64,000 nt of DNA, from assembly GCA_046735395.1 (NCBI GenBank), contig JBJKQR010000012.1:21394-85393 (forward strand), given 5' to 3'. The notes beneath the pieces were generated by a model, which saw only the letters and a list, made by a program, of their open reading frames with translations, was not told the origin of the DNA and made no database searches. This stretch comes from Fidelibacterota bacterium. GTDB lineage: Bacteria > Fidelibacterota > Fidelibacteria > Fidelibacterales > DSDE01. A program made the position numbers and the translations under genes. Below are positions 3,693 through 64,000 of the stretch, piece after piece (position 1 is the first letter of the stretch; each line of letters opens with the position of its first letter).

Positions 3693-3704
3693 GGACGACA
3701 TCCC

Positions 3705-4646: not shown

Positions 4647-5928
4647 ATTCAATCTGCTGCATCCTGATGATGACTTTCCCGAAAATCTCGAAAAAGATGA
4701 ACTTGATACGATCGATGAGCAACCGGAGCCGGAAGTCCGAGATTATCCCGAACCTGTTTCCCGGGAGGACGGTCTGGATGAGACGGTACTGTCTGAACTG
4801 GACGAGTACAAGCAGAGCGGCCCGGATATTGAAACATTCGAGGATGAGGACTACGAGGAGGATGATGAGGATGAGGATTACGAATCATCTCATCATTGGG
4901 CGCTAATCTCAGGCCTCTCCGTCGTTGTCCTGATTGCTGCGGTCTGGATTGCCTTTATTCTCGGAGTTCTGCCTTCTCCTCTGGATCGGACTGTTCAGAG
5001 TATCAAAGATAAAATTGTCGTGATGGTCAGCGGGGAAAAACTTCCTGAAGCAGCTATCAGCGAAGAACGTATTTTTGAAGAGACCACTCCCGAGCCGGCT
5101 GCGATGGAAGAGACGGCCGGAGTGAAAATTTCGGAGACACCGTCTGAAGCTGTGTCGAAATTTGTTCCCGAATCCATTGTCAAGACTGTTCCTGAACCGG
5201 AACCTGAACCTGAACCCGTAGCCGAGCCGGATACGGTACAGGAGTCTGTCGCCACACAGGCCGCAATACTTCCTCCACCCATCAGTCCCGGTCCCGAAAT
5301 GCCCGATCTGTCCAGATCTGAGTATGAGCAGCTTACGATGGCTTCTGCCCGGTCCCAGGCTTTTCTCGAAAACAGTATAGCCTTCATCCGGCTTTTCCCC
5401 AAGGGGCTTTTCATCTCAACCCTCAGCTGCTCACCCAACGAATTGGTATTGGAGGCCAAAGCCCCGAATTCTGATATTTTCAAGGTGTTCACACAGGAAA
5501 TGAAACAGTCAGGGCTCTTTTCACACTTTGTCTATACCCCGGATAATTCAGCGGATGACACTACGCCGATGGCTCTTTTCCGGGGGGATTTCAAACTTGA
5601 ATATGACAATTCGGACAATGACCTCTATAATCTGGATTCGAAACGGTTCATCAATTATGTATCGGACATTGCCGGACGTGAGAATATGGAGCTCAATGAT
5701 CAGAGATCCTTTACGGTGAACAGCGATCTGCAGAAAGTAAAGACCACCATGCATGAACTCGGATACTACGCCGATGTGGACAGGATCCAGAATTTCCTCA
5801 GCGATCTTCTGTCCATTCCGGGCACCTTTTCCGTGGAAAAAATATATCTCAGCCGAAAATCTACCGATTCGTTTCCCGATCCCATCAAACTTATGCTGTA
5901 TGTCAGTCTGAACGAAAGGGGTGAATGA
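4639..5928 (+). CDS. Hypothetical bitopic membrane protein with PilN-like N-terminal motif, acidic insert and PE-repeat linker
   Basis: The N-terminus MIKFNLLHP resembles the PilN INLLP motif that binds PilM. It is followed by an ~80-aa D/E-rich segment, one TM helix (WALISGLSVVVLIAAVWIAFILGVL), a PEPEPEPEP linker (DNA 5191-5217) and a ~200-aa C-terminal domain. Confidence 0.5.
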   Translation: MIKFNLLHPDDDFPENLEKDELDTIDEQPEPEVRDYPEPVSREDGLDETVLSELDEYKQSGPDIETFEDEDYEEDDEDEDYESSHHWALISGLSVVVLIAAVWIAFILGVLPSPLDRTVQSIKDKIVVMVSGEKLPEAAISEERIFEETTPEPAAMEETAGVKISETPSEAVSKFVPESIVKTVPEPEPEPEPVAEPDTVQESVATQAAILPPPISPGPEMPDLSRSEYEQLTMASARSQAFLENSIAFIRLFPKGLFISTLSCSPNELVLEAKAPNSDIFKVFTQEMKQSGLFSHFVYTPDNSADDTTPMALFRGDFKLEYDNSDNDLYNLDSKRFINYVSDIAGRENMELNDQRSFTVNSDLQKVKTTMHELGYYADVDRIQNFLSDLLSIPGTFSVEKIYLSRKSTDSFPDPIKLMLYVSLNERGE

Positions 5929-6933: not shown

Positions 6934-7922
6934 TGTCAAAGATACTCGAAGCTGTCCGGGAAAATGCCCGGCAGACTACAAATATTAAGCTGGTCCTGCC
7001 GGAAGGGCACGATCCCCGCATTCTCAGTGCCGCGCGCACCATCGTGGATGAAGGGATTGCACGGGTAGCCGTTATGGGCGGACAGGTGGAGCTGCGCAGT
7101 ACAGCCGACCGGGCCGGTGTGAATCTCGACGGGATAGAACTGATTACTCCCGGAAAGGATTCGGATTATGAAGCCTTTGCGGATGAATATTTTCAGCTGA
7201 GACAGGCCAAGGGCATGACACGGGAAAAAGCGCTGGACACTCTGACGGACAGCACCTTTTTCGGTGCCATGATGCTGAGAAAAGGCCGGGCCGACGCCTG
7301 TATCTCCGGTGCTGCCAATGCGACGGCCCACGTGGTTCGGGCGGCCCTGCAGATCGTTCAGACCAAACCGGGGAATTCGGTCCTGTCATCGGATTTTCTC
7401 ATGATTGCTCCGGATGACAGCCGGGCTCTGTCCTACGCGGATTGTGCCGTCATGCCGGATCCTACTTCGGAACAGCTGGCCGACATCGCCTGGGCTACGG
7501 CTCAGACCCATGAGTCGGTTTTTAATACAAAGGCTGTAGTGGCCCTGCTCTCCTTTTCCACAAAAGGATCGGCGTCACACCCTCTTGTGAACAAGGTGAC
7601 GGATGCGCTCCGCATTGCCCGTGAAAAGTACCCGTCCCTCGCCATCGACGGGGAATTGCAGCTGGATGCGGCCCTCATCGAAAACGTAGCGAAAAGCAAA
7701 GCCCCCGGTTCCACCGTGGCAGGCCGGGCCAATGTTCTGGTCTTTCCTGACCTCAATGCAGGCAATATCGGCTATAAACTCACGCAGCGCCTTGCCGGAT
7801 ATGATGCCGTGGGGCCGGTGTTTCAGGGCCTGAACAAGCCCATACACGATCTGTCCAGAGGCTGCAGCGCCACCGATATTGTCAATCTCGCCGCCATTGC
7901 GGCCCTGCAAACCAAGGAGTAG
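6933..7922 (+). CDS. pta: Phosphate acetyltransferase (short PTA_PTB-only form)
   Basis: 329 aa. The Pta-like sequence runs throughout (LVLPEGHDPRIL, SGAANATAHVV, ADCAVMPDP, VLVFPDLNAGNIGYK). Confidence 0.88.
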   Translation: MSKILEAVRENARQTTNIKLVLPEGHDPRILSAARTIVDEGIARVAVMGGQVELRSTADRAGVNLDGIELITPGKDSDYEAFADEYFQLRQAKGMTREKALDTLTDSTFFGAMMLRKGRADACISGAANATAHVVRAALQIVQTKPGNSVLSSDFLMIAPDDSRALSYADCAVMPDPTSEQLADIAWATAQTHESVFNTKAVVALLSFSTKGSASHPLVNKVTDALRIAREKYPSLAIDGELQLDAALIENVAKSKAPGSTVAGRANVLVFPDLNAGNIGYKLTQRLAGYDAVGPVFQGLNKPIHDLSRGCSATDIVNLAAIAALQTKE

Positions 7923-25563: not shown

Positions 25564-26760
25564 ATGATGATGGCATTTACAGATGGTACTGATCTCAGCC
25601 AATTAATACATGTATTTCATGAGTCCTGTCACTCCTACGGGGACCTGTGCCGGCAGACCTATTCACTGATCGGCAGAAATTCCGAAGCCGGATTGATTCT
25701 CGTGTCACAGCAGCTGAATACTGAAAATCTGGATATCCTGGATGCTTTCGGATGGATGGCGGGGCTGTCATCCCCTGACCTGATCCGGCTGCTGACCGCC
25801 AGCAACAGATCGGAAGAGTTCACAGAGAAGGTGTGGATAAAAAAGCTGGAAAATGAACAGGCCGCTTCCGGTGCCGCGGTGACGCTTCTGTGCTGGAAGG
25901 ATGGCCGGAACAAATATTTGCTGGCTATGGATGAAGGCGGCGAAACCGCGGACGGCATACAGACCGCAGAGCTCACGGCTTTGCTGGCCATGAAGATAGA
26001 AGCGCTGAAATCCCGGGCTCAGCGACAGCCGGATGAAGAGAAGAGTGAATTCCGGAACGGGCGGCTGCATAATGTTGGGGTTCTGGCTGCGGGCGTGGCT
26101 CATGAGGTCAATAACCCGCTGACGGGAATGATCAATTTTGCCCAGATGATCCAGGATCATTCAGACAGCGACAGAATCAGGAGGTACGCGGATTCAGTTA
26201 TCCGTGAGGGAAACCGTATCGCCCGAATTGTCCGGAATCTGCTTTCCTACAGTGCATTCCGGGAAGAAGGACCGGTGCTGGTGAATCCCGCAGATGTGCT
26301 GAATGATGCCATCTCTCTCCTGCGGTCAACCCTTACATCCGAATCCATCAGCGTGGATTTTGCGGAATCCGTTCAGCTTCCGGCCGCGTCCCTGAACAGC
26401 CAGCAACTGGAACAGGTTTTCATTAATGTTCTGCTGAATGCCCGGGATTCACTGAACCGGAAATTTCCAGGACAGCACGCCGATAAAAAAATACATATTG
26501 ATCTGGCCTCTCGTGGCGATGCACCGAACCAATGGGCTGTATTTCGCCTTCGGGACAACGGGGAAGGTGTTCCGGAAGAATATCTGAAAAAGATATTTGA
26601 TGAAGGTTTCTCCACGGGTGACGGATCCCGAAACAGCGGCCTGGGACTCCCCATTTCCCGCCGGATTATTCAGAGCAGCGGAGGTAAGCTCAGCCTGGAA
26701 TCCGAATGGGGAAAAGGGGCGATGGTAACCATCGAGATTCCGATCACCGGAGCAAAATGA
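25564..26760 (+). CDS. Cytoplasmic sensor histidine kinase (unknown N-terminal domain + HisKA + HATPase)
   Basis: H-box VAHEVNNPLTGM, N-box NVLLNARDS and G2 box GLGLPISRRI. No TM helix is evident. Confidence 0.85.
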   Translation: MMMAFTDGTDLSQLIHVFHESCHSYGDLCRQTYSLIGRNSEAGLILVSQQLNTENLDILDAFGWMAGLSSPDLIRLLTASNRSEEFTEKVWIKKLENEQAASGAAVTLLCWKDGRNKYLLAMDEGGETADGIQTAELTALLAMKIEALKSRAQRQPDEEKSEFRNGRLHNVGVLAAGVAHEVNNPLTGMINFAQMIQDHSDSDRIRRYADSVIREGNRIARIVRNLLSYSAFREEGPVLVNPADVLNDAISLLRSTLTSESISVDFAESVQLPAASLNSQQLEQVFINVLLNARDSLNRKFPGQHADKKIHIDLASRGDAPNQWAVFRLRDNGEGVPEEYLKKIFDEGFSTGDGSRNSGLGLPISRRIIQSSGGKLSLESEWGKGAMVTIEIPITGAK

Positions 26761-32095: not shown

Positions 32096-33601
<1,506 letters not shown>

Positions 33602-33605
33602 TAAA

Positions 33606-33966
33606 CCACGAAAACACACGAATTCTCCATTTAGTCCACCAGGAACACGAATGGACACGAATTATCCAATTTATCCACGAAGGATACGAATGGACACGAA
33701 TTATCCAATTTATCCACGAGGAACACGAATGGACACGAAATTTCTATTTAATCCACGAAGAACATAAAACGCACGAATTGTCTATTCAATCCACGAAGGA
33801 CACGAATGGACACGAATTATCCTACGAAGGATACGAATGGACACGAATTATCTATTTAATCCACGGAGAACACGAAAACACACGAATTGTCTATTCAATC
33901 CACGAGGAACACGAAAACACACGAATTGTCCATTTTATCCATGAAGGACACGAATGAAACCGAATT
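33606..33966. repeat. Tandem array of about ten 38-39-bp direct repeats (minisatellite/iteron-like)
   Basis: Hand-counted unit starts are 33606 (30-bp partial), 33636, 33675, 33714, 33753, 33791 (32 bp), 33823, 33861, 33900 and 33939 (degenerate). An example unit is CCACGAAGGATACGAATGGACACGAATTATCCAATTTAT. Each unit holds three ACGAA cores spaced 9-10 bp apart plus an AT-rich tail. Confidence 0.95.
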
Positions 33967-34072
33967 GGGGAAAAACCTGTTTTCTATATTATTGAATAAA
34001 TCTGTGTAATCCGAGCATAAGCTTCTGCGTGAATTCAGCGTTAAACTGCTGTAGTAAATACGACCTGCCGAA

Positions 34073-35317
34073 TCAGGCGGTCTGATCCGTGGCCTGCTCC
34101 ACAGCCAGGCTGATGATCTTCAGGATAACATCTCTGGCTTTCAGCATGGATTCGAGGGGAATGTATTCATAAATGCCGTGGTAATTGTGGCCGCCGGTAA
34201 AAATATTAGGGCAGGGCAGGCCCATGAATGACAGGCGGGCGCCATCCGTTCCGCCGCGAACAGGAACGCGTAAAGCCTGGATCTCACTGGATGTAATGGC
34301 TTGAACCGCGAGATCAATGACCTGCGGGAACTGGTCAATGATTTCCTTCATGTTGTAGTACTGATCGGTCAGTGTCAGTTTTACGCTCTCACGGCCGTAT
34401 TTTTTATTGATGAAGGCCACTGCGTCATGGATCATCGCTTTTTTGTTTTCAAATCGGGTCCGGTCATGATCCCGGATGATATACACCATCCGGCAGGCGC
34501 TCACAGTTCCTTCCATCGCCAACAGATGAAAAAAACCTTCGTATCCTTCCGTATGTTCCGGCCGTTCCCATTCCGGAAGCATACTGTTCAGCTCCATGCC
34601 CAGAAGAATGGCATTCCGCATCTGGTTCTTGGCTGTTCCCGGATGTACGTTCACTCCCTCTATCAGGATATCCGCACGTCCGGCATTGAAATTTTCACTT
34701 TCCATTTCACCCAGTTCGCCTCCATCCACCGTATACGCGAATTCTGCACCGAAGCGCGCAATATCAAAACGATCCGCACCCCGGCCGATTTCTTCATCGG
34801 GGGTAAAAGCTATGCGGATATCACCGTGCGGAATCCGGGGATTTTCCAGAAGAAATTCCATGGCGGAGATGATGCAGGCGACACCGGCCTTGTCATCTGC
34901 CCCCAACAGGGTCGTTCCGTCGGTCGTTATCAATGTCTGTCCCTTGTAATGCAGAAGTTCGGGAAATTCGGCCGGATTCAGGACGCAGTCCTGTTTACCT
35001 TTCAGCGGGATGAGATTTCCGTCATAATCCGGGATGATCTGAGCCTTCACGTTTTCTCCGCTCGCATCCTCAGCCGTATCCATATGGGCAATGAAACCGA
35101 TGACCGGCGCTGCTGTCTCCGTATTGGCCGGTAACTCAGCCATGACGTAGCCGTTTTCGTCAAGAGAGACCTTCTGCAGTCCGATGGCTTTTAATTCCTC
35201 TGTCAGCACCCGGGCAAGGTTTAACTGTCCGGCAGTGCTGGGGCAGGTTTTTGAGTTTTCATCACTTTGAGTATTGATAGCCGTGTAACGAATAAACCGT
35301 GTGAGCAGATCTTCCAT
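34073..35317 (-). CDS. pepT: Peptidase T (tripeptide aminopeptidase)
   Basis: M20B pattern (MEDLLTRFIRYTAINTQSDE N-terminus, FIAHMDT, GADDKAG, TPDEEIG). The ORF-track start at 35371 adds 18 unlikely residues. Confidence 0.9.
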   Translation of the reverse strand: MEDLLTRFIRYTAINTQSDENSKTCPSTAGQLNLARVLTEELKAIGLQKVSLDENGYVMAELPANTETAAPVIGFIAHMDTAEDASGENVKAQIIPDYDGNLIPLKGKQDCVLNPAEFPELLHYKGQTLITTDGTTLLGADDKAGVACIISAMEFLLENPRIPHGDIRIAFTPDEEIGRGADRFDIARFGAEFAYTVDGGELGEMESENFNAGRADILIEGVNVHPGTAKNQMRNAILLGMELNSMLPEWERPEHTEGYEGFFHLLAMEGTVSACRMVYIIRDHDRTRFENKKAMIHDAVAFINKKYGRESVKLTLTDQYYNMKEIIDQFPQVIDLAVQAITSSEIQALRVPVRGGTDGARLSFMGLPCPNIFTGGHNYHGIYEYIPLESMLKARDVILKIISLAVEQATDQTA

Positions 35318-35454
35318 GTCGGTCACTCCCTTGTTTTCAGTGAATTTAAGGACACCGGGGCAGTCCGGCATCGGATTTTTTATTTCCTGCCGGGATGAGG
35401 GGATCTTTATTGATATTATTCCTCATATCCGATTCCGAATAAAAGTGGATGACA

Positions 35455-36765
35455 TCAGCCTTCTGACCGCGGATCAATGAGAGCGATGATCACGTCGCCC
35501 ACATTCGTGCCCGTGTGTCCGGTTTCAATATGTCCCTGTTTCAGTTTCTTAAAGAAATGAAAGGAATCATTATTCTCAAGAAATTCATCAATGGAGAGCC
35601 CGCTCTCCTGCCAGGCATCCAGTATTTCCGGTGTAAAATAGGCTCCGGCCATGGGAGTCGGGCCGTCAATGCCATCGGTTCCCGCTGAAAGAATGCTGAT
35701 ATTTCGTGAATTTTTCAGTTCAGCCATCGCGCTGAGGACCAGTTCCTGGTTTCTTCCTCCCAGACCTGTCCCCCTTACCTTTACCGTTGTCTCTCCACCG
35801 AAAACCAGGCAGGTCGGCTGATTTGCCGATTCATAGCTTTTTGCCACCTTCGCCACATGATGTCCGTATTCCCGCGCTTCGCCACGAACCTTCTCATCCA
35901 CGATGATACAGGTGTAATTCATTGCCTTGGCTTTACGCACCGCGCCCACGAGAGCCATCTTGTTATGAGCGAGAATGTAGTGAGGATATCCCGTATGAAC
36001 CTGCTTGGGACGTTCCCGTATGAGTTCCGTCAGGATATTTTTCGGCAATTTATCCACCAGCTCGTATTTGAGGATGATCTTTTTAATGGTTTCCATTTCC
36101 GGTTCACTGGGATAAAAGGGCGCTGACCCGATGGTCGCGAAATCATTATCCGGCACATCCGATACGATGAGAACCACGCCGTGTGCCGAGGTCATCCGTC
36201 CCAGATTTCCGCCTTTGATACGGGATAATTTCTTTCTCAGAACATTCAGCTCAAAAATGGACAGGCCTTCCTTCTGCAGCATTTCCGTGACATCATGCCA
36301 CATGTCGTAATTTACGCCGCCATAGGTCATTTCCATGAGCGAGGAAGAGCCGCCGCTCAGCAGGTAGATAAAAAAGTCGTTCATTTCCATGGATTCAAAA
36401 AGGCGGACCATGGCTTTTCCGCAGGCAAAGGATCGGCGTGTGGGATAGGGGTGACCGCCTTCCATGATCTTCAGACGCGTAAATCTCGCCCCGTAATGAT
36501 TGGATACAACCAGATTCCCGGAAAATTTCCCCGGGTACAAAGCAGTCATGGATTTGGCCATATCGATGGCAGCTTTTCCCGAAGCCGCCAGATATATTTT
36601 TTTAAATCGTTTCAGATCGTATTCTTCACCTTCAATGATGAGTTTCCTGTCCTTGAAACGAATACTGCGGGTCATGAAGGAGATGGACCTGACTTCTTCG
36701 ACTGCAGCCTGGAATATATTGAGAATGGGGATATCCTCAAGCTTTTTCTTTTTCACATTAAACAT
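35455..36765 (-). CDS. Glycerate 2-kinase (DUF4147 + MOFRL family)
   Basis: 436 aa with the C-terminal MOFRL-type motif SAGTDGIDGPT and a GGETTV segment. Confidence 0.8.
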   Translation of the reverse strand: MFNVKKKKLEDIPILNIFQAAVEEVRSISFMTRSIRFKDRKLIIEGEEYDLKRFKKIYLAASGKAAIDMAKSMTALYPGKFSGNLVVSNHYGARFTRLKIMEGGHPYPTRRSFACGKAMVRLFESMEMNDFFIYLLSGGSSSLMEMTYGGVNYDMWHDVTEMLQKEGLSIFELNVLRKKLSRIKGGNLGRMTSAHGVVLIVSDVPDNDFATIGSAPFYPSEPEMETIKKIILKYELVDKLPKNILTELIRERPKQVHTGYPHYILAHNKMALVGAVRKAKAMNYTCIIVDEKVRGEAREYGHHVAKVAKSYESANQPTCLVFGGETTVKVRGTGLGGRNQELVLSAMAELKNSRNISILSAGTDGIDGPTPMAGAYFTPEILDAWQESGLSIDEFLENNDSFHFFKKLKQGHIETGHTGTNVGDVIIALIDPRSEG

Positions 36766-37181
36766 GGTTTCTCTCCTGAGGAAGGGGCTGTTTCATTCCT
36801 GAAATGCAGTTGTTTCTGCTGAGATGGAGTTCTGCCGCTGCTTGTACCTGTCATGTTGCCAATATATTAAAAAATGCCGAATTGGGGAACGGAATATGAA
36901 TTCCGTCCCGGGAAAAGAGAGACATGATGGCTCTTGTTCGGTTTTTCGGACCGGCATTAAGGCGTAAATCATCTACTGAACTCCGCCGTGACTCTTGTTC
37001 ATGTCAAGGAATTTTCATAAATTGAAGCAATGAAATCCGGACAGCATGCAAAGATGATTCAAATGTGCCTCATCGGAAGGTGCAATGACCTGTTCCGGGA
37101 TGAAAATGCCGGATATCTAATCAGGAATAATTATAAGCAAATAGCTCTGAAGTCGTTCAGGATAATTCAGGAAAGGGAAAA

Positions 37182-38240
37182 ATGAAAATCGTTGTTGCCA
37201 TAAACCCGGGGTCGATGTCGACAAAAATCGGAGTCTTCAGCGAGAAGACCAAGCTGTTCGAAGTGAATACGCCCTTTTTTATGGGTGAACGGCCCAGGAA
37301 TGTTGCGGATGAATTTCCCAACCGGCTGAAAATAATTGAGGAAACGGTCACCCGTTTCTGCCGGGAAAATGAAGTGATCGCCATTGTGGGGCGTGGCGGA
37401 CCTCTGAAGCCGCTGCCCGGCGGTGTCTACAGAGTGAACGGGGATATGCTGGATGATTTGAAAAATGCCCGATACAGTAACCACGCCAGCAATCTCGGAG
37501 CCATTCTGGCGGATTATTTTGCCCGGCGTTATTCCGTTCCGGCGCTGATCGTTGATCCGGTCACCGTTGATGAATTCGATCCGCTGGCCCGTATTTCGGG
37601 TTTTCCGGGCATCGAACGGCGAAGCCGTTCTCACGCGCTCAGTATTCGTGCCACGGTACGCCGATCCTGTGACCGGCATGGATGGAAAATGGAAAAGAAT
37701 AATTTTGTCGTGGCGCATTTAGGCGGAGGCATATCGGTGGCAGCCGTAAAAAAAGGGCAGATCCGGGACGTCAATGACGGATTGCTGGGCATGGGCCCCT
37801 TTTCTCCCGAACGGGCCGGAGCGCTTCCCATCGGCGCGCTGACCGAACTGGCCGCTTCCAGGAAACAGAGTCTGGAAAAACTTCAGCAGTATCTGAGCCG
37901 GGATGCCGGGCTGAAAGGGTATCTGGGCACGGCGGACGCGGTGGAAGTGGAAACGCGTATCGCCCGAGGGGATGAACAGGCTGAATTGATTTACGAGGCC
38001 ATGCTCTACCAGATAAAAAAAGAGATCGGAGCCATGCTGGCTGTCTGTAATTTCAAGGTCAAGGCCGTCCTCATCACGGGCGGGCTGGCGAATTCAGACA
38101 GGGTCTGCAGATATCTGAAGAAGGGACTCGGCCGCCGGAGAGTGGAATTTTATCCCGGTGAAAATGAACTGGAAGCAATGGCTGACGGAGCCTGGAGAGC
38201 ACTCAAAGGCGAGATCGAAATTCAGGAATACAGCAAATGA
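37182..38240 (+). CDS. buk: Butyrate kinase
   Basis: ASKHA-fold N-terminus (KIVVAINPGSMSTKIGVF), HLGGGISV, and a length of 352 aa typical of Buk. Confidence 0.88.
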   Translation: MKIVVAINPGSMSTKIGVFSEKTKLFEVNTPFFMGERPRNVADEFPNRLKIIEETVTRFCRENEVIAIVGRGGPLKPLPGGVYRVNGDMLDDLKNARYSNHASNLGAILADYFARRYSVPALIVDPVTVDEFDPLARISGFPGIERRSRSHALSIRATVRRSCDRHGWKMEKNNFVVAHLGGGISVAAVKKGQIRDVNDGLLGMGPFSPERAGALPIGALTELAASRKQSLEKLQQYLSRDAGLKGYLGTADAVEVETRIARGDEQAELIYEAMLYQIKKEIGAMLAVCNFKVKAVLITGGLANSDRVCRYLKKGLGRRRVEFYPGENELEAMADGAWRALKGEIEIQEYSK

Positions 38241-39106
38241 GATTCGTCGACCTGTATGAACGGATCAATATTGAGGAGCCCCGGCGTCTCAATGTGGTGA
38301 ATCCCCGGAGTGATTCCGTGCTGGATGCCGTTCGCCAGGCTGCTGAAAAAGGGTATGTTATTCCGGTACTTTTCGGTGACGAGAAGATGATTTCAGAAAA
38401 GCTGGAAAAAAATCCCCTGCCCGGCGCTGAAATAATTCATGCTCAGGATGAAGCAGCGGCAGCTGAACTGGCTGTGAAGGATGTTCGAGCCGGCCATGGG
38501 CACCTGTTGATGAAAGGCGATATTCCCACCGCCTCCTTCATGAAACCGGTGCTGAATCGTGATTACGGACTGCGGACCGGTTCGGTGCTGTCCCATATTG
38601 CCGTCGCAGATACGGATTTTGTCGGCAGGCTGATTTTTATCGCCGATGGAGGGATTACGATCCGGCCGGATCTTGACGTAAAACGGGCCATCGCCGCGAA
38701 CACAGCGGTCTTCGCCGAACAATTGCTGGGGAAGAAACCCGTCATGGCGTTTGCAGCTGCCATTGAGGTCATCAATGAGAAAATGCCCGAGACCGGGGAA
38801 GCCAGGATTCTGGCTGAGGAATATGCAAATCGCGGTTATATTGCAGAAGGACCGGTTGCCTTCGATGTTATTTTTTCACAGACTGCAGCGGCAAAGAAGG
38901 GAATCGAAAGCCGGATCAGCGAAAGGACGGATGTCATCATCATGCCGGATATGACAACGGCCAATTTTATGGTGAAACAGTTGATATTTTTCAGTAAGGC
39001 CGCAGTCGGCGGCATTATTGCAGGCGCTTCAGTGCCGTTGATTCTGCTGAGCCGTTCCGATTCTGCCGAGACAAAACTGAATTCCATTATCCTGGGACTT
39101 CTATAA
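38237..39106 (+). CDS. ptb: Phosphate butyryltransferase
   Basis: A 289-aa PTA_PTB-family protein with a 4-nt overlap with buk. Confidence 0.82.
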   Translation: MRFVDLYERINIEEPRRLNVVNPRSDSVLDAVRQAAEKGYVIPVLFGDEKMISEKLEKNPLPGAEIIHAQDEAAAAELAVKDVRAGHGHLLMKGDIPTASFMKPVLNRDYGLRTGSVLSHIAVADTDFVGRLIFIADGGITIRPDLDVKRAIAANTAVFAEQLLGKKPVMAFAAAIEVINEKMPETGEARILAEEYANRGYIAEGPVAFDVIFSQTAAAKKGIESRISERTDVIIMPDMTTANFMVKQLIFFSKAAVGGIIAGASVPLILLSRSDSAETKLNSIILGLL

Positions 39107-39123
39107 AATATTCATGTAACGAA

Positions 39124-39732
39124 ATGGGTGAAATGCAGACTAACACTGTAAATGAAGACGAGCTCATCGACAAGGCAAAAAAAGGCGATAAAAAAGCGCA
39201 GGCGCAGCTGGTCATGAGATACGAAAACCGAATTTACAATCTGGCGCTGAGAATGATGCGCGACAGAGATGATGCGGAAGATGTTCTTCAGGAAACATTT
39301 TTGACCGCGCTCCGAAAGCTCGACAGTTTTGAGGGCAGATCCCAGTTCTTCACCTGGCTGTACCGCATTGCCATGAATATTTCACTGCAGAAACTACGGG
39401 AAAATAAGAAATACGATACGGGACTCAGTCTATCAGATCCGGATTTTGAGAGTCTTCACGGGCAGCATCTGGCCGAATGGCCGGCCTACAGCAAGAATAT
39501 GCTCAGCAACAAGGATTTCCGTCAGCTGCTGGACAGCGCTATCCGGGCTCTGCCGCCCATCTACCGGTCCGTATTCATACTGAGAGATATTGAAGGATTA
39601 TCAACGGAAGAAGCCCGCACACTTCTGGATCTGAGCGACAGCAATGTGAAGGTCCGGCTGATGAGAGCCCGTTTCTTTCTCAGGGAAAAGCTTGAAGAGT
39701 ATTTCCGGGAATCCGGGAGGCAGGGACTATGA
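39124..39732 (+). CDS. ECF-type RNA polymerase sigma factor
   Basis: Region 2 (DAEDVLQETFLTALRKLDSF...FTWLYRIAMN) and region 4 (LPPIYRSVFILRDIEGLSTEEAR). Confidence 0.9.
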   Translation: MGEMQTNTVNEDELIDKAKKGDKKAQAQLVMRYENRIYNLALRMMRDRDDAEDVLQETFLTALRKLDSFEGRSQFFTWLYRIAMNISLQKLRENKKYDTGLSLSDPDFESLHGQHLAEWPAYSKNMLSNKDFRQLLDSAIRALPPIYRSVFILRDIEGLSTEEARTLLDLSDSNVKVRLMRARFFLREKLEEYFRESGRQGL

Positions 39733-40022
39733 CGCATCATCCGAAACATCCGGCGCCTGAACCTGTGACCATCGAGGTCGGACAGGAGATGAAAACTTTC
39801 GAAAAATTCTGCCAGGAACTGGGCAAGGATATTGACCGGGATTTCTGCCGGGAAATCAAGACTGAAATAGAGAATTGTCCCCAGTGCAAAGTCTATTTTG
39901 ACACCATTCGCCGTACAGTGAAACTCTATCAGTCCTGTGAGGAAAACGCGGCTGTGGATGAAGTCCGGGAGGACCGGCTGTTTAAAGTTCTCAACCTGGA
40001 AAAACCCAAAACCGGCAAATAG
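39729..40022 (+). CDS. Putative soluble Cys-rich anti-sigma factor (ZAS/RsrA-like)
   Basis: ATGA overlap with the sigma gene. The protein is 97 aa with no TM helix and has Cys at residues 28, 40, 50, 53 and 70, including ENCPQC (39876-39887). Confidence 0.6.
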   Translation: MTHHPKHPAPEPVTIEVGQEMKTFEKFCQELGKDIDRDFCREIKTEIENCPQCKVYFDTIRRTVKLYQSCEENAAVDEVREDRLFKVLNLEKPKTGK

Positions 40023-40106
40023 CTTTTAATTGTTTATAAAATTGAAAATATGTAAATTTGGCCCAGGATGGCTTGGGTCAGGACACGGTAAGAAAGAGAG
40101 TGATAA

Positions 40107-40367
40107 ATGACAGAACAGAAGAATGCGCGAAGCCCGAAAGTCATCGTATTTACCACCCCGACCTGCACCTACTGCACACAGGTAAAACGGTATCTGCGGG
40201 AGAAACAGGTGAAATTCAAAGAAGTGGATGTGAGCCGGGATGCGAAAGCCGCGATGGACATGCAGCGAAAAACACATCAGCAGGGTGTTCCCCAGCTCTG
40301 GATTGACAATAAACCCATTGTAGGATTTGACAGGCCAAAAATAGATCAAATGTTAAACTTAAAATGA
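40107..40367 (+). CDS. Glutaredoxin-like protein (YruB/NrdH-like)
   Basis: 86 aa with VIVFTTPTCTYCTQVKRYL (CxxC) and the GVPQLWI...GF thioredoxin-fold pattern. Confidence 0.8.
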   Translation: MTEQKNARSPKVIVFTTPTCTYCTQVKRYLREKQVKFKEVDVSRDAKAAMDMQRKTHQQGVPQLWIDNKPIVGFDRPKIDQMLNLK

Positions 40368-40383
40368 AAAACGGAGGACAGAG

Positions 40384-40653
40384 ATGAAAATAAAGCCCCT
40401 CGATGATCGTATTCTGATCAAAGCTCTGCCGGAAGAAGAAAAGACTGCCGGCGGAATTATCATTCCTGATACTGCAAAAGAAAAACCCCGTGTAGCCGAA
40501 GTTGTGGCCGTCGGGACTGACGAAGATCTGAAAGAGGTTATTTCCGTCGGGATGAAGGTTCTGTTCGGAAAATACTCCGGAGAAGAGATCAAGGTTGATG
40601 GTGAAGAATATACCTTGCTTCAGCGGAGTGATGTTCTCGCTATCGTAGAGTAA
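40384..40653 (+). CDS. groS: Co-chaperonin GroES
   Basis: 89 aa with IKPLDDRILIK and the mobile loop EEKTAGGIIIPDTAKEKP. Confidence 0.95.
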   Translation: MKIKPLDDRILIKALPEEEKTAGGIIIPDTAKEKPRVAEVVAVGTDEDLKEVISVGMKVLFGKYSGEEIKVDGEEYTLLQRSDVLAIVE

Positions 40654-40722
40654 TTTCTGACTATGACGGGGGTGGCCGGGCTGCCCCCGTTTACTTTTCC
40701 TTAAGTATTGCTGGGAGTTCAG

Positions 40723-42078
40723 ATGAGTCAAAGGCTAGTGATTGTAGGTGGCGACGCGGCAGGGATGTCTGCCGCAAGCAAAGCGAAACGCGTCAGTCCT
40801 GACGCTGAAGTCGTTGTGCTTGAAAAAGGCAGATTTATCTCTTATGCTGCCTGCGGTATTCCATACTATATCGGAGGTCTGGTCAGCGATTGGCAGGACC
40901 TGCTCATCCTGAGCCCGAAGGCGGCGCGCGAAGGGCGAAAAATAGATGTGCGGCTTCATCATCTGGTGGAGTCCTTCGACCCCAAGACCCGGATTGTCCG
41001 CGGAAAAAATCTGGAGGATGGCTCGGCCTTCGAACTGAGTTATGATAAACTCATCCTGGCCACAGGCGCCCGTCCGGTCATACCCAAGATCCAGGGCATG
41101 GATCTCCCGGGTGTTTTCACACTGAGAAACATTGACGACGGCCTCGCGATTCGGAAATATATTGACGAAAACAAACCTGCGACGGCAATCGTCGTCGGGG
41201 GCGGCTATATCGGCCTGGAAATGCTGGAAGCCTTTCACCGTCAGGGCATCAAACTGACGATTATTGAACGGCTCGACCGGATCATGGTGACGGTTGATGA
41301 AGAAATCGCCCAGCTGGTTGAAGAGGAAATCCGCCGCCATGGCATTGATATTTTATTGCGGACAACGCTGGTCGGTATCCGGAAGGGACGGGAAAATCTG
41401 GAAGTCCTGCTGGCCGGCGGGCCCGGTAAGATGCAGGCGGATATGGTCCTCGTATCTGCCGGTGTTCAGCCGAATTCCGAGCTGGCGAAGGAAGCCGGCG
41501 CACGACTGGGCCGCAGCAATGCGATCCGCATCAATGAAAAGATGGAAACGACCCTGCCGAATGTCTACGCGGCCGGTGACTGCGTGGAACATAAACATAT
41601 CATCAGCGGCAGAAATACCTATATCCCGCTGGCACCCGCTGCCAATAAGGGTGGACGGGTCGCAGGCGAAAATGCTGTCGGTGGCGAAGTGGATTTTCCC
41701 GGAGTCATCGGGACCAGTATCACCAAAGTCTTTGACCTGGAAGTGGCGCGCACCGGACTGTCCTATCGCGACACGTCCGAGACCATTTATTCCAAAGTGA
41801 AACAGATAACCATCGTGGAGAAGACGAAAGCGCGGTATTTTCCGGGGACGGATAATCTTACCATACGACTGGTCGTGGACAAACGCAGCAACAAGCTTCT
41901 GGGTGCCCAGATTATCGGGAAGGAAGGCGCCGGAAAGCGTATTGATGTCTTTGCCGTAGCCATACAACAAAATATGAAACTTGAAGATATTGCCAATCTG
42001 GATCTGGCTTATGCGCCGCCCTTTTCTCCGGTGTATGATCCCATCCTGATTTCGGCGTATGTGGGATTGCGAAAATGA
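40723..42078 (+). CDS. Pyridine nucleotide-disulfide oxidoreductase, CoA-disulfide reductase/NADH oxidase family
   Basis: FAD motif VIVGGDAAG, a single redox Cys in SYAACGIPYY, NAD motif VVGGGYIGLE and YAAGDC. The ATG at 40723 follows GGGAG. Confidence 0.85.
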   Translation: MSQRLVIVGGDAAGMSAASKAKRVSPDAEVVVLEKGRFISYAACGIPYYIGGLVSDWQDLLILSPKAAREGRKIDVRLHHLVESFDPKTRIVRGKNLEDGSAFELSYDKLILATGARPVIPKIQGMDLPGVFTLRNIDDGLAIRKYIDENKPATAIVVGGGYIGLEMLEAFHRQGIKLTIIERLDRIMVTVDEEIAQLVEEEIRRHGIDILLRTTLVGIRKGRENLEVLLAGGPGKMQADMVLVSAGVQPNSELAKEAGARLGRSNAIRINEKMETTLPNVYAAGDCVEHKHIISGRNTYIPLAPAANKGGRVAGENAVGGEVDFPGVIGTSITKVFDLEVARTGLSYRDTSETIYSKVKQITIVEKTKARYFPGTDNLTIRLVVDKRSNKLLGAQIIGKEGAGKRIDVFAVAIQQNMKLEDIANLDLAYAPPFSPVYDPILISAYVGLRK

Positions 42079-42551
42079 AAAAATATCTCCCGGTGCTCCT
42101 GCTTATCCTGACAGCAGTAACTCTGACGGCCCAGGATCTGAAAAGCGAGCGGCAGATCAATCTGGAAAAACAGCTCATGGCGCCCTGCTGTTACGGCGGC
42201 GCGATTTATGATCATGAGTCCGGAGTCGCCGACCAGATGAAACGCGATATTGCCATCATGATCAAGGATGGCAAGTCAGATGATGAAATACTGGCTCATT
42301 ACGAAGCGGAATACGGGGAAAAAATCCTGGCTACACCCAAGGCGAAAGGGTTTAACCTCGCCGCCTGGTGGGTTCCGGCTGTACTGGGAATCCTGGCCCT
42401 CCTTGGCTATATCCTGTATACGCTGACCATGAAGACCCGAAAGCTCTCCGGTGTAGCAGACGCAGATGTCAGTGCCGACGTTCCGGAGGCATCACTGGAT
42501 ATATCGTCTATAATCGACAGGGAACTGGATGAATTCAAAAAGAACAATTGA
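42075..42551 (+). CDS. CcmH/NrfF-like membrane-anchored protein with non-canonical APCC motif
   Basis: The layout is signal peptide, APCCYGGAIYDHES...KDGKSDDEILAHYEAEYGEKIL, then a C-terminal TM helix. It is collinear with the E. coli CcmH N-domain but with LRCPKC replaced by LMAPCC. ATGA overlap with the upstream reductase. Confidence 0.6.
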   Translation: MKKYLPVLLLILTAVTLTAQDLKSERQINLEKQLMAPCCYGGAIYDHESGVADQMKRDIAIMIKDGKSDDEILAHYEAEYGEKILATPKAKGFNLAAWWVPAVLGILALLGYILYTLTMKTRKLSGVADADVSADVPEASLDISSIIDRELDEFKKNN

Positions 42552-42744
42552 TGAAAATATACTGATTGAAGAGCTGGTGGAGGAATTTCCTCAGCTCGTC
42601 CGGCCGCTGATGGAATACGGTATTGTCTGCCTCGTCTGCGGTGAACCGGCCTGGGGAACACTCCGGGAACAGGCTGAATCTAAAAATATTACCAATCTAC
42701 CTGAAATTCTCGTGAATCTGAATCACCTGATTCAGACGGAATAA
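42529..42744 (+). CDS. DUF1858 / hybrid-cluster-protein-associated redox disulfide domain protein
   Basis: 71 aa with IEELVEEFPQL...GIVCLVCGEPAWGTL (CxxC). It overlaps the upstream gene by 23 nt. Confidence 0.7.
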   Translation: MNSKRTIDENILIEELVEEFPQLVRPLMEYGIVCLVCGEPAWGTLREQAESKNITNLPEILVNLNHLIQTE

Positions 42745-43014
42745 AAAACAGACATGTCAGATTCCCATTTTGGTTTGCGGCGGGCGGATTGTGACCGGCT
42801 GCCTCGGGATTTATTCTGTAAAAATTCAGCGCGTATCTATTTACTCAGCTGCAGTACATCTTATATCTACGCGGGGATATTTTCCTTTCTCAATATTGGC
42901 AAAAATTCGTATATTTGCAATAAGGGGAATTATCAATTTTGAGAATAATGAACTCCGAAGCACAATTATTAAAAGAATCACACGGTAAATCAGGGTGTTG
43001 CAGCCCTGTTGTTT

Positions 43015-43030
43015 TGGCACGCCATTTGAG
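43015..43030 (+). promoter_or_regulatory. Candidate sigma-54 (-24/-12) promoter upstream of the alanine dehydrogenase-like gene
   Basis: TGGCACGCCATTTGAG compared with the consensus TGGCACG-N4-TTGCW: the spacing is correct and the only mismatch is GA for GC at -12. It lies about 38 bp upstream of the GTG at 43067. Confidence 0.35.
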
Positions 43031-43066
43031 AAACATTCAGACAGCCAGACAGGGAAGAGGTGCTTT

Positions 43067-44176
43067 GTGAATGTAGGAATTGTGCATGAAACCCGGAATC
43101 AGGAACATCGTGTTGCCTTGAACCCGGCCGGTGTTGCCCATCTGACGGGGCAGGGTGTGACGGTTTTTGTCCAGAGCGGTGCCGGTGTGGACAGCGGCTG
43201 GGCCGATCATCAGTATTCGGAGGCCGGGGCATCAATTGTATATTCTCCTGAAGAAATCTGGGGACGGTCTGATGTTCTGATGAAGATCAGTCCTCTCGAA
43301 CGGGAGGAAGTGGATCTGATCCGCGATGATCAGACGATTCTCTCCTGGCAGCATCTGATAGTGCGCCATCCCGATGTCATCCGGGCACTGATGGATAAGC
43401 GAAGCACGGTCATCGGCTACGAAATGATTGAACAGAATTCAGGCCTGCGACCGCTGGTTGCGGGAGTTGCGGAAATCGCCGGATATGTGGCTGTCAGTAC
43501 GTCTGTACACTATCTGCAGAATGAGGAGGGCGGCCGGGCAAAGATCATTGCCGGTGTGGCCGGTGTTCCTCAGGGCAGCATCGTCATTCTGGGAGCGGGC
43601 CTTACGGGCCAGGCTGCGGCTGCAGCCGGGGTGGGGAACGGCGCCTACGTGATCGTTATTGACAAGGATGCGGAAAAACTCCGCAATCTCGAAAAAAGAT
43701 TCGGCGGCCGTATCACCACCTACTTTTCCAATGCCGCCAATATTGCCAAGGCGGTGTCCTTTGCGGATGTGGTGATTGCCTGTGCCGCGACACCCGGGGA
43801 TATTGCACCGAAACTGATCAGCGAAGAGATGGTGAAAAGCATGAAGTACCGCGCTATCCTTGCGGACCTGTCCATTGATCAGGGCGGTTGTGCCGAGACC
43901 TCTCATCCCACCAGTCTTGCCAATCCTACATTCATCAAGCATGATGTTGTTCATTACTGTGTTCCGAATATGACGGCAAATGTGTCCCGGACTACAAGTT
44001 CGGTCATCTCAAACGGCCTGCTGCGCTATCTCGACAATATGATTGAAATGGGCGTGGCCAAGGCTGTAAAAACAAGCGCCTGTCTGCGCAGGGGTACTTT
44101 TCTCTACCAGGGTTTATGCGTGAGGGAAAGCATCGCCAGGCATTTTGACCTGAAATGGGAAAGCCTGCCGCTATGA
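43067..44176 (+). CDS. Alanine dehydrogenase family protein (AlaDH/PNT)
   Basis: VNVGIVHETRNQEHRVALNPAGV... is collinear with the Ald N-terminus, and an NAD-binding motif is present (VILGAGLTGQAAA). I prefer the GTG start. The ORF-track extension from 42995 lacks homology-like sequence. Confidence 0.78.
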   Translation: MNVGIVHETRNQEHRVALNPAGVAHLTGQGVTVFVQSGAGVDSGWADHQYSEAGASIVYSPEEIWGRSDVLMKISPLEREEVDLIRDDQTILSWQHLIVRHPDVIRALMDKRSTVIGYEMIEQNSGLRPLVAGVAEIAGYVAVSTSVHYLQNEEGGRAKIIAGVAGVPQGSIVILGAGLTGQAAAAAGVGNGAYVIVIDKDAEKLRNLEKRFGGRITTYFSNAANIAKAVSFADVVIACAATPGDIAPKLISEEMVKSMKYRAILADLSIDQGGCAETSHPTSLANPTFIKHDVVHYCVPNMTANVSRTTSSVISNGLLRYLDNMIEMGVAKAVKTSACLRRGTFLYQGLCVRESIARHFDLKWESLPL

Positions 44177-45480
44177 ACAGGGAATTCAGCTGGGCAAAGA
44201 AATACCAGTCCCGGATTGTGACCGTGGACGAAGCGGTTTCCCATATCCAATCCGGAGATACGGTATATATTCACCCCGGGTCGGCGACGCCGGATATCCT
44301 CATTGAAGGGATGGTCGCCCGAGCTCCCCGGCTCGAAGATGTCAAAGTTGTCCAGATACTGTCATTCGGTAATGCACCCTACGCCGCGCCGGGTATGGAA
44401 AACCATTTCCGGGTCCTGTCCCTGTTTACCGGGCCCAATGTGAGGCAGGCGGTGAATGACGGACGGGCTGAGTTCGTTCCCGTTTTTCTCTCCGAGATTC
44501 CCACGCTGTTTTACAATCGTGAGATTGAAATCGATGTAGCGCTCATTCAGGTGACGCCGCCGGATGAACACGGTTTCTGCAGTTTTGGTGTGGGAGTGGA
44601 TGTGACCATGGCCGCATGCCGCAGCGCGAAAACCATTATTGCTCACGTGAATCCCAGGATGCCCCGGGTGCACGGAGATAATTTTATTCATTTCAGCAAG
44701 CTCCATTATATTGTTGAGGAGGAACGGCCCCTGCAGGAACTTCCGCGTGCCGAACTGTCCGACACCTACATGAATATCGGCCGGAATGTGGCGGAGCTCA
44801 TTGAAGATGAAAGCACGCTGCAGATGGGAATCGGCGGTATTCCGGATGCGGTTCTTACCTTTCTCAAGGATAAACGTGATCTCGGTATTCACACTGAGAT
44901 GTTCAGTGACGGGGTTGTGGAACTCTTTGAAGAGGGGATCATCACCAATGAGAAGAAGACGCTGCATCCCGGGAAAATGGTGGCGGGATTTGTATTGGGA
45001 TCCTCCTATCTCTTTGATTTTATTCATAATAATCCTGTGGTGGAATTTCATCCACAGGAATATATAAATGATCCGTTCATCATCGCTCAGAACCGGAAAA
45101 TGGTGGCCATCAACAGCGCGCTGGAAGTGGACATTACCGGCCAGATCTGTGCTGACAGCATCGGAACCCGAAATTACAGCGGAATCGGCGGACAGGTGGA
45201 TTTTTTCCGCGGTGCGGCGCGCAGCGAAGGCGGAAAACCCATCCTTGCTCTGCCGTCCACAGCCGGAAAGGGAGAGCTGAGCCGCATCGTTCCCATGCTT
45301 AAGCCCGGCGCATCCGTGACAACGAGCAGGGGCGACGTTCATTATGTGGTGACTGAATTCGGCGTTGCCTATCTGCACGGAAAATCACTCAGGGAAAGAG
45401 CGCGCAGACTCATCGCCATAGCCGATCCCCGTTTTCGGGATGGATTGGAACAGGCCGCCCGGGAACGAAACTTGATTTAA
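44173..45480 (+). CDS. Acetyl-CoA hydrolase/transferase family protein (4-hydroxybutyrate/succinyl-CoA:acetate CoA-transferase-like)
   Basis: Family pattern (GIGGIPDAV, IHTEMFSDG, NSALEVDITGQ). The ATG at 44173 forms an ATGA overlap with the upstream stop. Confidence 0.88.
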   Translation: MNREFSWAKKYQSRIVTVDEAVSHIQSGDTVYIHPGSATPDILIEGMVARAPRLEDVKVVQILSFGNAPYAAPGMENHFRVLSLFTGPNVRQAVNDGRAEFVPVFLSEIPTLFYNREIEIDVALIQVTPPDEHGFCSFGVGVDVTMAACRSAKTIIAHVNPRMPRVHGDNFIHFSKLHYIVEEERPLQELPRAELSDTYMNIGRNVAELIEDESTLQMGIGGIPDAVLTFLKDKRDLGIHTEMFSDGVVELFEEGIITNEKKTLHPGKMVAGFVLGSSYLFDFIHNNPVVEFHPQEYINDPFIIAQNRKMVAINSALEVDITGQICADSIGTRNYSGIGGQVDFFRGAARSEGGKPILALPSTAGKGELSRIVPMLKPGASVTTSRGDVHYVVTEFGVAYLHGKSLRERARRLIAIADPRFRDGLEQAARERNLI

Positions 45481-61806: not shown

Positions 61807-64000
61807 ATGATATCGCAGAAGAAAATAATCATTCGATCTCTTGTTTTACTTGCCGCTCTCCTGGCTTCCGGCCTGATCGCGCAGGATATTCCCGGAAATG
61901 CGGATGCCGAGAACGCCAATTCAGCTATTTTTACTCTTTTTAACCAAACAGGAAACAATCTGACGTCCAATTTTATTACGGGAATCTGTGAAGATAGTCT
62001 GGGGCGATTGATTATCGGCACGGGAAAAGGGATGAATTTTTATAACGGCTATGAATTCTATACCGTACCTGTTCCCGGAGACAGTAATAATATCATGACC
62101 ACAACCATTAGCGGAATGGTGATGGATAAAAAGGGTTTCATCTATTTCGGAAGCATGCTCAATGGCCTTTTTCGTTATGATCCGGCCCGGAACTCTCTGA
62201 AGAACATCCATATCTATCATAATCCCAATTTTCATAAAGACGATCTGATGGCGAGATTCAGTCAGCGAATACAATCACTCCTGTATCTGCCGGAAGACAG
62301 AATTATTTTCAGTTATTTTCACCAGAATGGATTTTTCACTCTCGATACAAGAACAGGTCATATCACTGAGTCGGCTGTCGGAAATGAAAGGGTTATCAAT
62401 CGCATTGTTCAGGGGAGCGGAGATGATATTCTGATCATATGTACAGATGGATCCGTATTCCGATACGATTTCACTACAAATGCAATATCGTCGGTTGATT
62501 TACCGGAGCTGTGCAATAACTGCAGGATCAGCACTGCTTTCGTGGATTCCCGGAAAAACATTTGGTTCGCAACTGCAAATAACGGGTTGTTCAAAGTTAA
62601 CGGCAATACGGTGGAATCTTTTCCGATGGACAGTGATAAAAACAGAGATATATACTACAGATCTTTTCTGGAAGATAAATTTCATAATATCTGGATCGGA
62701 ACGAGTGAGGGGCTGTATCGCTACAATTCAGACGAGAGCTGGACACATTTTCAGTATCAGGGGAATACGGGCTTCAGTCTGCCCGTTGAAAATATCTGGT
62801 ACCTCTTTATTGATTCCTCAAATTATCTCTGGATCGGAACGGATCACGGACTGGTAAGAATGATTACAGCGACGAATCTTGCGGGATACAAGGTTTTCCA
62901 TGCAGATAAAACTCATCAGACTGATGTTACCTGCATGACGCAATTGAATACGAACCGATTTCTCCTTGGTACGAATAACAGCGGCCTGCAGATCTTTGAT
63001 AATCGTGATGTATCGATAAAACCGCTAATGTGGGCGAATATGGACAGCGTTCTGAAGACGGGAAATGTGAGGAACTGTGTCCAATCCAATAATTATATTT
63101 ACACAGTTTTCGCACACCATGGCCTGTTTGAAGCGATGTTGAACGATTCCGAAGATCTGACCTTTCATCCCCTGAGTGTTCCCGGTTATAGCGGCGAAAG
63201 TAAATTACCTATGTTCCACAATCTGGGGGTTGACAGCAGGGGAAATGTCTGGATCTCCCTGCTTCGGGAAAACTCTATTCTGTATTTTGACCCGGTACAC
63301 AGACAGTTTCATAATGTTTCTTTTCCGGACAGCATGCGTCAGAAAAATAGTTTTATAGTGCAGAAATTCTTCAACGACCGGGACGGAAACCTGTGGCTGG
63401 GAACCCGAAACGGCCTGTATGAATGGAATGGCCGGGAGATCATCGGACATCACAGTCAGATGGAAGACGGACGAAATTTCATAACTGGAATTCATCAGGA
63501 TTCACACGGAGATATCTGGTATTCCGATCAAATGGAAGGCTTGAATACGATCGGAGATGACGGGGCTGTGAAAACCATTATTGCCAATCATAAAAAGGAA
63601 TGGATTTTTGATTTTGAGCTGGATGAAAATGACAATGTGATCTGGTATACACAGCAGAAACATGGCCTGGGACGCTATGATATGGATCTGGGAACTACTT
63701 CTTTTCTGGGTTTGAATCAGGGATTGGCCGGAAATAATTATTACAGCCTTTTCTTTATTGATCCCTATGAAATCCTTCTTTTTGGAAATCAGGGCCTGAG
63801 TGCATATAACACGCTGACCGATCAGATCCTCAATTATACCAACGATCAGGGTTTCCGATTCTCCATCACGGTGGGGGCCACCTTTGTTAAAAAGAATGAT
63901 AATTTGTTATTTGGTGGTCGGGACAATATTTTTTCCATTTCTCCCGAAGATCTGGTTCCGGAGATTCCTCACAAATCCGTATTATTCAAATCTGTTTTCA
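61807..64000 (+). CDS. Secreted two-component-regulator propeller repeat protein, N-terminal ~730 aa (3' end beyond window)
   Basis: It is not in the ORF track because no stop occurs. I translated frame 1 from the ATG at 61807 to base 63999 and found it open. The protein has a signal peptide (LVLLAALLASGLIAQ) and recurring NIWFAT/NIWIGTSEGLYRY/YLWIGTDHGL/NLWLGTRNGLYEW/DIWYSD beta-propeller repeats. Confidence 0.85.
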   Translation, partial: MISQKKIIIRSLVLLAALLASGLIAQDIPGNADAENANSAIFTLFNQTGNNLTSNFITGICEDSLGRLIIGTGKGMNFYNGYEFYTVPVPGDSNNIMTTTISGMVMDKKGFIYFGSMLNGLFRYDPARNSLKNIHIYHNPNFHKDDLMARFSQRIQSLLYLPEDRIIFSYFHQNGFFTLDTRTGHITESAVGNERVINRIVQGSGDDILIICTDGSVFRYDFTTNAISSVDLPELCNNCRISTAFVDSRKNIWFATANNGLFKVNGNTVESFPMDSDKNRDIYYRSFLEDKFHNIWIGTSEGLYRYNSDESWTHFQYQGNTGFSLPVENIWYLFIDSSNYLWIGTDHGLVRMITATNLAGYKVFHADKTHQTDVTCMTQLNTNRFLLGTNNSGLQIFDNRDVSIKPLMWANMDSVLKTGNVRNCVQSNNYIYTVFAHHGLFEAMLNDSEDLTFHPLSVPGYSGESKLPMFHNLGVDSRGNVWISLLRENSILYFDPVHRQFHNVSFPDSMRQKNSFIVQKFFNDRDGNLWLGTRNGLYEWNGREIIGHHSQMEDGRNFITGIHQDSHGDIWYSDQMEGLNTIGDDGAVKTIIANHKKEWIFDFELDENDNVIWYTQQKHGLGRYDMDLGTTSFLGLNQGLAGNNYYSLFFIDPYEILLFGNQGLSAYNTLTDQILNYTNDQGFRFSITVGATFVKKNDNLLFGGRDNIFSISPEDLVPEIPHKSVLFKSVF

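Follow-up and report, generated by a model that had tools for sequence, protein, structure and literature searches.

A 39-bp tandem array between the convergent cheB and pepT genes of a Fidelibacterota bacterium: probably a lineage-specific, non-coding minisatellite

Among described bacterial sequences, intergenic minisatellites (VNTR loci), which include the mycobacterial MIRU-type tandem repeats, share with the array analysed here head-to-tail units of tens of bp, an intergenic and non-coding position, imperfect subtypes and occurrence in one lineage only. MIRU-type units, however, recur at many loci, whereas the present array is apparently a single-locus sequence, and the 10-bp substructure of its unit is unusually regular for a minisatellite. 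VNTR loci are recognized in practice by polymorphism in copy number. The operators of OmpR/PhoB-type regulators and of MraZ are built from runs of two to four short direct repeats that recur every 10-11 bp, a period shared by the cores of the array, which are 10 bp apart. On the other hand, such operators lie at promoters, contain few repeats and are conserved together with their target gene, whereas the array lies between two 3' ends, comprises approximately 28 cores, is not accompanied by a promoter-like site and lacks conservation. Plasmid iterons (period typically approximately 22 bp) and the parC repeats of ParR/parC centromeres (typically approximately 11 bp) resemble the array as directly repeated sites in one orientation; each of them is found beside a rep or par operon, in contrast to the array, which is surrounded by chromosomal housekeeping genes with no rep or par gene among those annotated. 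The junctions between its units, which read TTATCCACG or T(A/C)AATCCACG in one orientation, recall the DnaA-box clusters of oriC or datA; compared with these clusters, the array has two boxes with one mismatch or fewer, no switch in GC skew, and no dnaA or dnaN among the annotated genes. As its nearest relatives do not have it, the array looks like a minisatellite of the usual bacterial type and not like a new regulatory element.

The window (the whole 64-kb stretch of DNA that was analysed) contains the following features at this locus.

32564-33601, + strand: cheB (NCBIfam NF001965 CheB, 443 bits, residues 2-343 of 345 aligned)
33571-33957, + strand: stop-free frame of 129 codons, with codons in register with 33607, judged not to be a gene
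33606-33968 (363 bp), no strand assigned: tandem array of ten head-to-tail units (TRF, unit parsing and alignment, motif counts against shuffles)
33969-34072 (104 bp), no strand assigned: non-repetitive rest of the gap (sequence)
34073-35317, - strand: pepT (NCBIfam PepT, 619 bits), convergent with cheB

The array takes up most of the 471-bp gap between the two genes. cheB is the final gene of a cheA-cheR-cheD-HDOD-cheY-cheX-cheB operon and ends with the double stop TAATAA (33599-33604), and the array starts 1 bp further on. The pepT product (414 aa) was identical (100%) to the database protein P0001, and the gene was also called in a second assembly (L007, see below); a weak terminator-like hairpin with a 5-pair stem (34063-34078, - strand) overlaps the pepT stop codon. 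The DNA of the window is of an ordinary chromosomal kind, with hrcA-grpE-dnaJ, obg, pyruvate dehydrogenase, htpG, the che operon, pepT, glycerate kinase, buk-ptb, an ECF sigma factor, a 2-oxoacid:ferredoxin oxidoreductase and a GGDEF response regulator. Among the annotated flanking genes (che genes, pepT, glycerate kinase, buk-ptb and the ECF sigma factor), no rep, par or OmpR/PhoB-type (winged-helix) regulator gene was found. The proteins of this genome that were looked up all formed singleton clusters and came from a single NCBI contig of 238.6 kb, the contig was carried by one sample only, and the nearest named homologues were those of Candidatus Marinimicrobia MAGs (81% for CheB and 68% for PepT). 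Going by the names of these homologues, the bacterium is probably an uncultured member of this group. Elsewhere in the window, three consecutive + strand ORFs (251, 313 and 429 aa; 2937-5928) had no Pfam match at E ≤ 1e-5, and a short Glu/Asp-rich repeat, GAGGATGAG, is present in the third (4840-4878). The GC content falls to 0.43 in 62001-64000, compared with approximately 0.50-0.53 in the remainder, and this part has few long ORFs.

The array is a real 39-bp tandem repeat: TRF reported it as 33616-33956 with a period of 39, 9.0 copies, 77% matches and a score of 339, and it was the sole substantial array in the window, all others having scores of 70 or less. The consensus unit is CCACGAAGAACACGAATGGACACGAATTATCCATTTAAT, and each unit consists of three CACGAA cores at 10-bp spacing followed by a 13-bp AT-rich tail, giving approximately 28 cores in the whole array. 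The motif content is likewise confined to the array: an 18-mer, CACGAATGGACACGAATT, occurred 9 times in the 64-kb window with up to 3 mismatches (0.05 expected) and ACACGAAT occurred 11 times (1.9 expected), in both cases exclusively within the array. Our own parsing, in which six of the ten units are exactly 39 bp long, is as follows.

U0, 33606-33635: 30 bp, B type, without the first core
U1, 33636-33674: 39 bp, A type
U2, 33675-33713: 39 bp, A type
U3, 33714-33752: 39 bp, A type
U4, 33753-33790: 38 bp, B type, with a 1-bp deletion
U5, 33791-33820: 30 bp, A type, without the 9-bp tail
U6, 33821-33860: 40 bp, A type, with a 1-bp insertion
U7, 33861-33899: 39 bp, B type
U8, 33900-33938: 39 bp, B type
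U9, 33939-33968: A-like, a degenerate copy decayed at the edge of the array

The two subtypes (..CGAATGGACACGAATTAT.. and ..CGAAAACACACGAATTGT..) are interleaved as B A A A B A A B B, followed by the degenerate A-like unit. The original prediction, made from the sequence, had given the same order, and its example unit was correct in all parts, including the 10-bp spacing of the three cores and the AT-rich tail of 13 bp. Its suggestion of a structured duplication history also agreed with our data: besides 39 bp, TRF found periods of 10, 109 and 147 bp in the array, and the most similar units were not always neighbours (U2-U6 and U1-U2, 0.90; U4-U7 and U7-U8, 0.87). The edge units U0 and U9 were the most divergent. 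Some details required revision. The indels had been given as 1 and 7 bp and are in fact -1 (U4), +1 (U6) and -9 (U5). The bottom-strand motif GTGTCC-N4-GTGTCC is exact in U5 only, while the other units have GTGTCC-N4-GTGTTC or GTATCC. The cores had been placed on one face of the helix, which holds inside each unit but not between units, since the period of 39 bp corresponds to approximately 3.7 turns and successive triplets therefore rotate. That the array is not a CRISPR was confirmed, because the whole 39 bp repeats and no unique spacers separate the units. Core positions deviated from the consensus in 6.9% of cells, compared with 22% elsewhere in the unit, in a count whose cells are not independent, as the units share ancestry; by variable columns, no significant difference was observed between core and non-core positions (Fisher p = 0.11, or 0.33 minus the edge units). 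In addition, the last codons of cheB (33585-33612; ..GAG CGA ATC TTA ATA AAC CAC GAA in the open frame of the array) look like a decayed core plus tail, and, speculatively, the 3' end of cheB may have been part of the sequence from which the array first grew.

No copy of the unit was found elsewhere in the 64-kb window, as originally stated, and phased CACGAA pairs outside the array were not more frequent there than by chance. For the wider search proposed at the same time, we used a 20-base degenerate pattern fitting the units of this array. Its matches in 596 Gb of species-representative genomes were two, both single, evidently due to chance and not part of a related array: one was in a coding region, and the other in TACGAA repeats upstream of a mraZ-like gene on a Parcubacteria contig. 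JGI metagenomes gave four single matches, none of them a related array, and viral contigs gave no match. The collections thus yielded only chance single matches, and blastn of the array against plasmids and phages found nothing. Judging from the 64-kb window and the collections searched, the unit is not part of a widespread dispersed family. A dispersed repeat of the REP, BIME or MITE type was therefore rejected, there being no copies outside the array in 64 kb and chance matches only in the collections. A mobile element or REP palindrome was also rejected: no inverted repeat of at least 10 bp was present in 33450-34150, and similarity to plasmids or phages was absent. As a separate observation, the Parcubacteria MAG contig (L002, JACPHE010000033.1; 3540-3610) has TACGAA/TTCGTA hexamers at intervals of approximately 10 bp, in both orientations, directly upstream of an ORF that we take to be MraZ from its appearance; these hexamers may be a MraZ operator with an unusual repeat.

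Homologues of CheB with 80-83% identity exist, and their contigs have the same operon. The only relative that shares the cheB/pepT arrangement (L013; CheB 80% identical, the same cheA-to-cheB operon and a convergent pepT, 63% identical) has a cheB-pepT gap of 30 bp on a contig without any tandem repeat. In three further relatives (L014, L016 and L019; CheB 73-83% identical), the gap after cheB is 35-113 bp and free of repeats. It measures approximately 35-54 bp in L014, where a gene other than pepT follows, and 103 bp in L016, where it contains a terminator with an A-run, a hairpin and a T-run; the relative whose CheB is 73% identical has a repeat-free gap of 113 bp, followed by cheY and a CheZ-like gene (a faint Pfam match). 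Because the orthologous gaps of these relatives, all from outside the species and genus, are short and repeat-free, both the array (363 bp) and the widening of the gap to 471 bp are lineage-specific and not a conserved feature of the locus. In L014, cheB was called 11 residues short (334 aa; 4690-4730), and the conserved C-terminus KMLKLAQSE, with its stop, is legible in another frame just beyond the called stop codon, which points to a 1-nt indel that is either genuine or due to misassembly.

The shape of the DNA was predicted with a wedge model, which gave the following values, indicative only: the mean local bend of the array was 19 degrees per 30 bp, compared with 14.3 +/- 1.8 for the window, placing it in the top 0.8% of 363-bp windows, and the ratio of end-to-end to contour length was 0.885, with no global planar curve (phased A-tract control: 48 degrees and a ratio of 0.27). 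The curvature prediction proposed earlier therefore gave a modestly raised local bend but no global curve. A replication origin or terminus was rejected because the GC skew keeps its positive sign across the array and its cumulative value climbs almost monotonically over the window. A cluster of DnaA boxes is weakly indicated, with two near-consensus boxes only: the junctions at 33671 and 33710 are one mismatch from the consensus, and the other junctions are two or three positions off. Across the window, 9-mers that differ from the DnaA box TTATCCACA at one position at most numbered 27, compared with 12.7 +/- 3.6 in shuffles, none of which reached 27; they are scattered and not clustered (e.g., 25832-25840, 3040-3048 and 7554-7562).

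Two readings question whether the array is what it appears to be, and neither is attractive. It is improbable that the array, while real, is unreliable in length and unit order through collapse, expansion or mixing of variants in short reads. The Logan assembly of SRR31309758 (L007) is identical to the window over 33852-45203, and its contig starts inside the array, on the final base of 29 nt that recur exactly within it (33824-33852 and 33677-33705); the longest exact internal repeat is 34 nt. However, the units are only approximately 77% identical and exact repeats do not exceed 34 nt, so that, with reads of 100-150 nt, most junctions should be unambiguous, 132 bp of the array are identical in the second assembly, and the neighbouring Logan contig (L012) also ends in non-repetitive cheB (32713), possibly through low coverage or strain variation, showing that the fragmentation is not specific to repeats. 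The rightmost three-and-a-bit units are thus confirmed by L007, and the copy number and order of the left two-thirds rest on one assembly. We consider even less plausible, to the point of setting it aside, that the array encodes a protein of 13-residue His/Glu-rich repeats, either as a separate small gene or as a frameshifted C-terminal extension of CheB. The original prediction had called the array non-coding on the ground that indels break every reading frame; the conclusion was upheld, but the reason was wrong, since the -1 and +1 indels compensate and one + strand frame stays open for 129 codons (33571-33957), the unit being equal to 13 codons. The frame translates as 13-residue His/Glu-rich repeats (..IHEEHEWTRIIQF..). 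On the other hand, 16% of column-permuted arrays, in which the repeat and indel structure was kept, also had a stop-free frame, and the open frame is therefore not significant. There is no ATG, GTG or TTG in this frame before 33778, the differences between units are mostly non-synonymous (alignment read by eye), and Pfam gave no match. phmmer against 1.84 billion representative proteins returned only 3 matches (E = 8.5e-7 to 9e-4), all built of 13-residue repeats, and the two that were traced (L017 and L018) proved to be spurious ORFs over unrelated tandem DNA repeats on eukaryotic-looking contigs, namely a 13-bp CATGAAAGTCATC satellite and a satellite-rich contig, respectively. An extension of CheB by frameshift is uncalled for because the alignment of CheB to the family profile already reaches the stop codon of the gene. 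We conclude that the array is non-coding.

The remaining readings assign it a function in RNA or in DNA. The array might act within the 3' UTR of the che operon mRNA, as a loading zone for Rho or through GGA triplets that bind a CsrA-like protein, which we regard as unlikely. It starts 1 bp past the cheB stop codons with no terminator-like site ahead, and its + strand is A/C-rich, G-poor and weakly structured: the C/G ratio was 1.0-1.67 in 78-nt windows over 33578-33890 (most of the array), compared with 0.72 in the last cheB window tested (33500-33577), a bias that we infer would suit Rho loading. Each strand has 13 GGA triplets (counted by eye), and the + strand fold had a z of -3.4 against shuffles (-0.6 for the - strand). 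However, a low z is expected of any repeat with short self-complementary words; the placement of GGA triplets in hairpin loops is inconsistent, and the hairpins at unit junctions are weak (-1 to -5 kcal/mol at most) and differ from unit to unit. Two terminator-like matches in B-type units (- strand) have 9-pair stems with three G-C pairs only. No Rfam family was matched, either in the window at the gathering score or in 33400-34200 at E up to 5; a separate RNA would have no promoter-like site to start from, and the relatives do with gaps of 30-113 bp. A sponge RNA like CsrB or RsmZ was rejected because of the missing promoter-like site and Rfam match and the weak, inconsistent hairpins. Somewhat less unlikely, but still doubtful, is that the approximately 28 CACGAA cores in 10-bp triplets form a binding platform that recruits or titrates a protein recognizing direct repeats, such as an OmpR/PhoB-type or MraZ-like regulator, a nucleoid-associated or partition-type protein, or DnaA via the TTATCCACG junctions. 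The 10-bp spacing inside each unit, the lower variation of the cores by cell count, the predicted local bend above the window average and, for DnaA, the two junctions at one mismatch from its box favor such a platform. In contrast, conservation of the cores was not significant by columns, DnaA boxes with one mismatch or fewer occur in just 2/10 units while similar boxes are scattered over the window, and the positive GC skew on either side argues against an origin. The more specific claim, made in the original prediction, of half-sites for a winged-helix regulator, of iterons or of a ParR-type centromere was unsupported by all the tests run, because the array lies between two 3' ends, no promoter-like site to be regulated was detected in 33000-34600, no cognate regulator, rep or par gene was among the annotated flanking genes, 64 kb held no additional operator-like pairs, and the array was missing from the orthologous gap of relatives. 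The literature on TTCGTG or CACGAA with direct-repeat binding gave incidental primer or sequence matches only. That the array is a landing pad whose approximately 28 CACGAA sites titrate or position a putative direct-repeat-binding protein is a long shot; if true, it would be a chromosomal sink or organizing site without a described counterpart, in an uncultured Marinimicrobia-like lineage.

We favor, with a probability of roughly 0.6, the reading that the array is a lineage-specific, non-coding minisatellite that arose by stepwise duplication, is probably present in the 3' tail of the che transcript, and is probably neutral. The locus has several properties of a minisatellite: head-to-tail repeats whose 39-bp unit is within the usual range of approximately 10-100 bp, and which are non-coding and absent at the orthologous site of L013. 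In addition, the gap between convergent 3' ends is the least constrained kind of intergenic region. Originally, the 3' ends of cheB and pepT would have been separated by a very short spacer, in which the array then arose. A 10-bp motif containing CACGAA may have multiplied to give the 39-bp unit, which would then comprise three cores and a decayed 9-bp fourth copy. This unit, and later blocks of approximately 109 and 147 bp, would have been duplicated via slipped-strand mispairing or unequal recombination, after which the units probably diverged to about 77% identity, with the greatest decay at the edges. Judged by this identity between units, the array is not recent and would have persisted for some time without being deleted. 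Because no terminator-like site is located between the cheB stop codon and the array, it is probably transcribed with the che operon, as the 3' tail of its mRNA. The array most likely has no sequence-specific function. This persistence counts against the reading, as do two further observations: the cores deviate from the consensus less than the rest of the unit, as constraint on the cores would give, and the predicted local bend is slightly raised.

The array would matter more only with a protein or RNA partner, to which nothing found here points. If it is neutral, as the minisatellite reading implies, it would be useful as a possible strain marker and would represent an assembly hazard at this locus. 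It would also illustrate clearly that stepwise tandem duplication can enlarge a 30-bp spacer between convergent genes more than tenfold.
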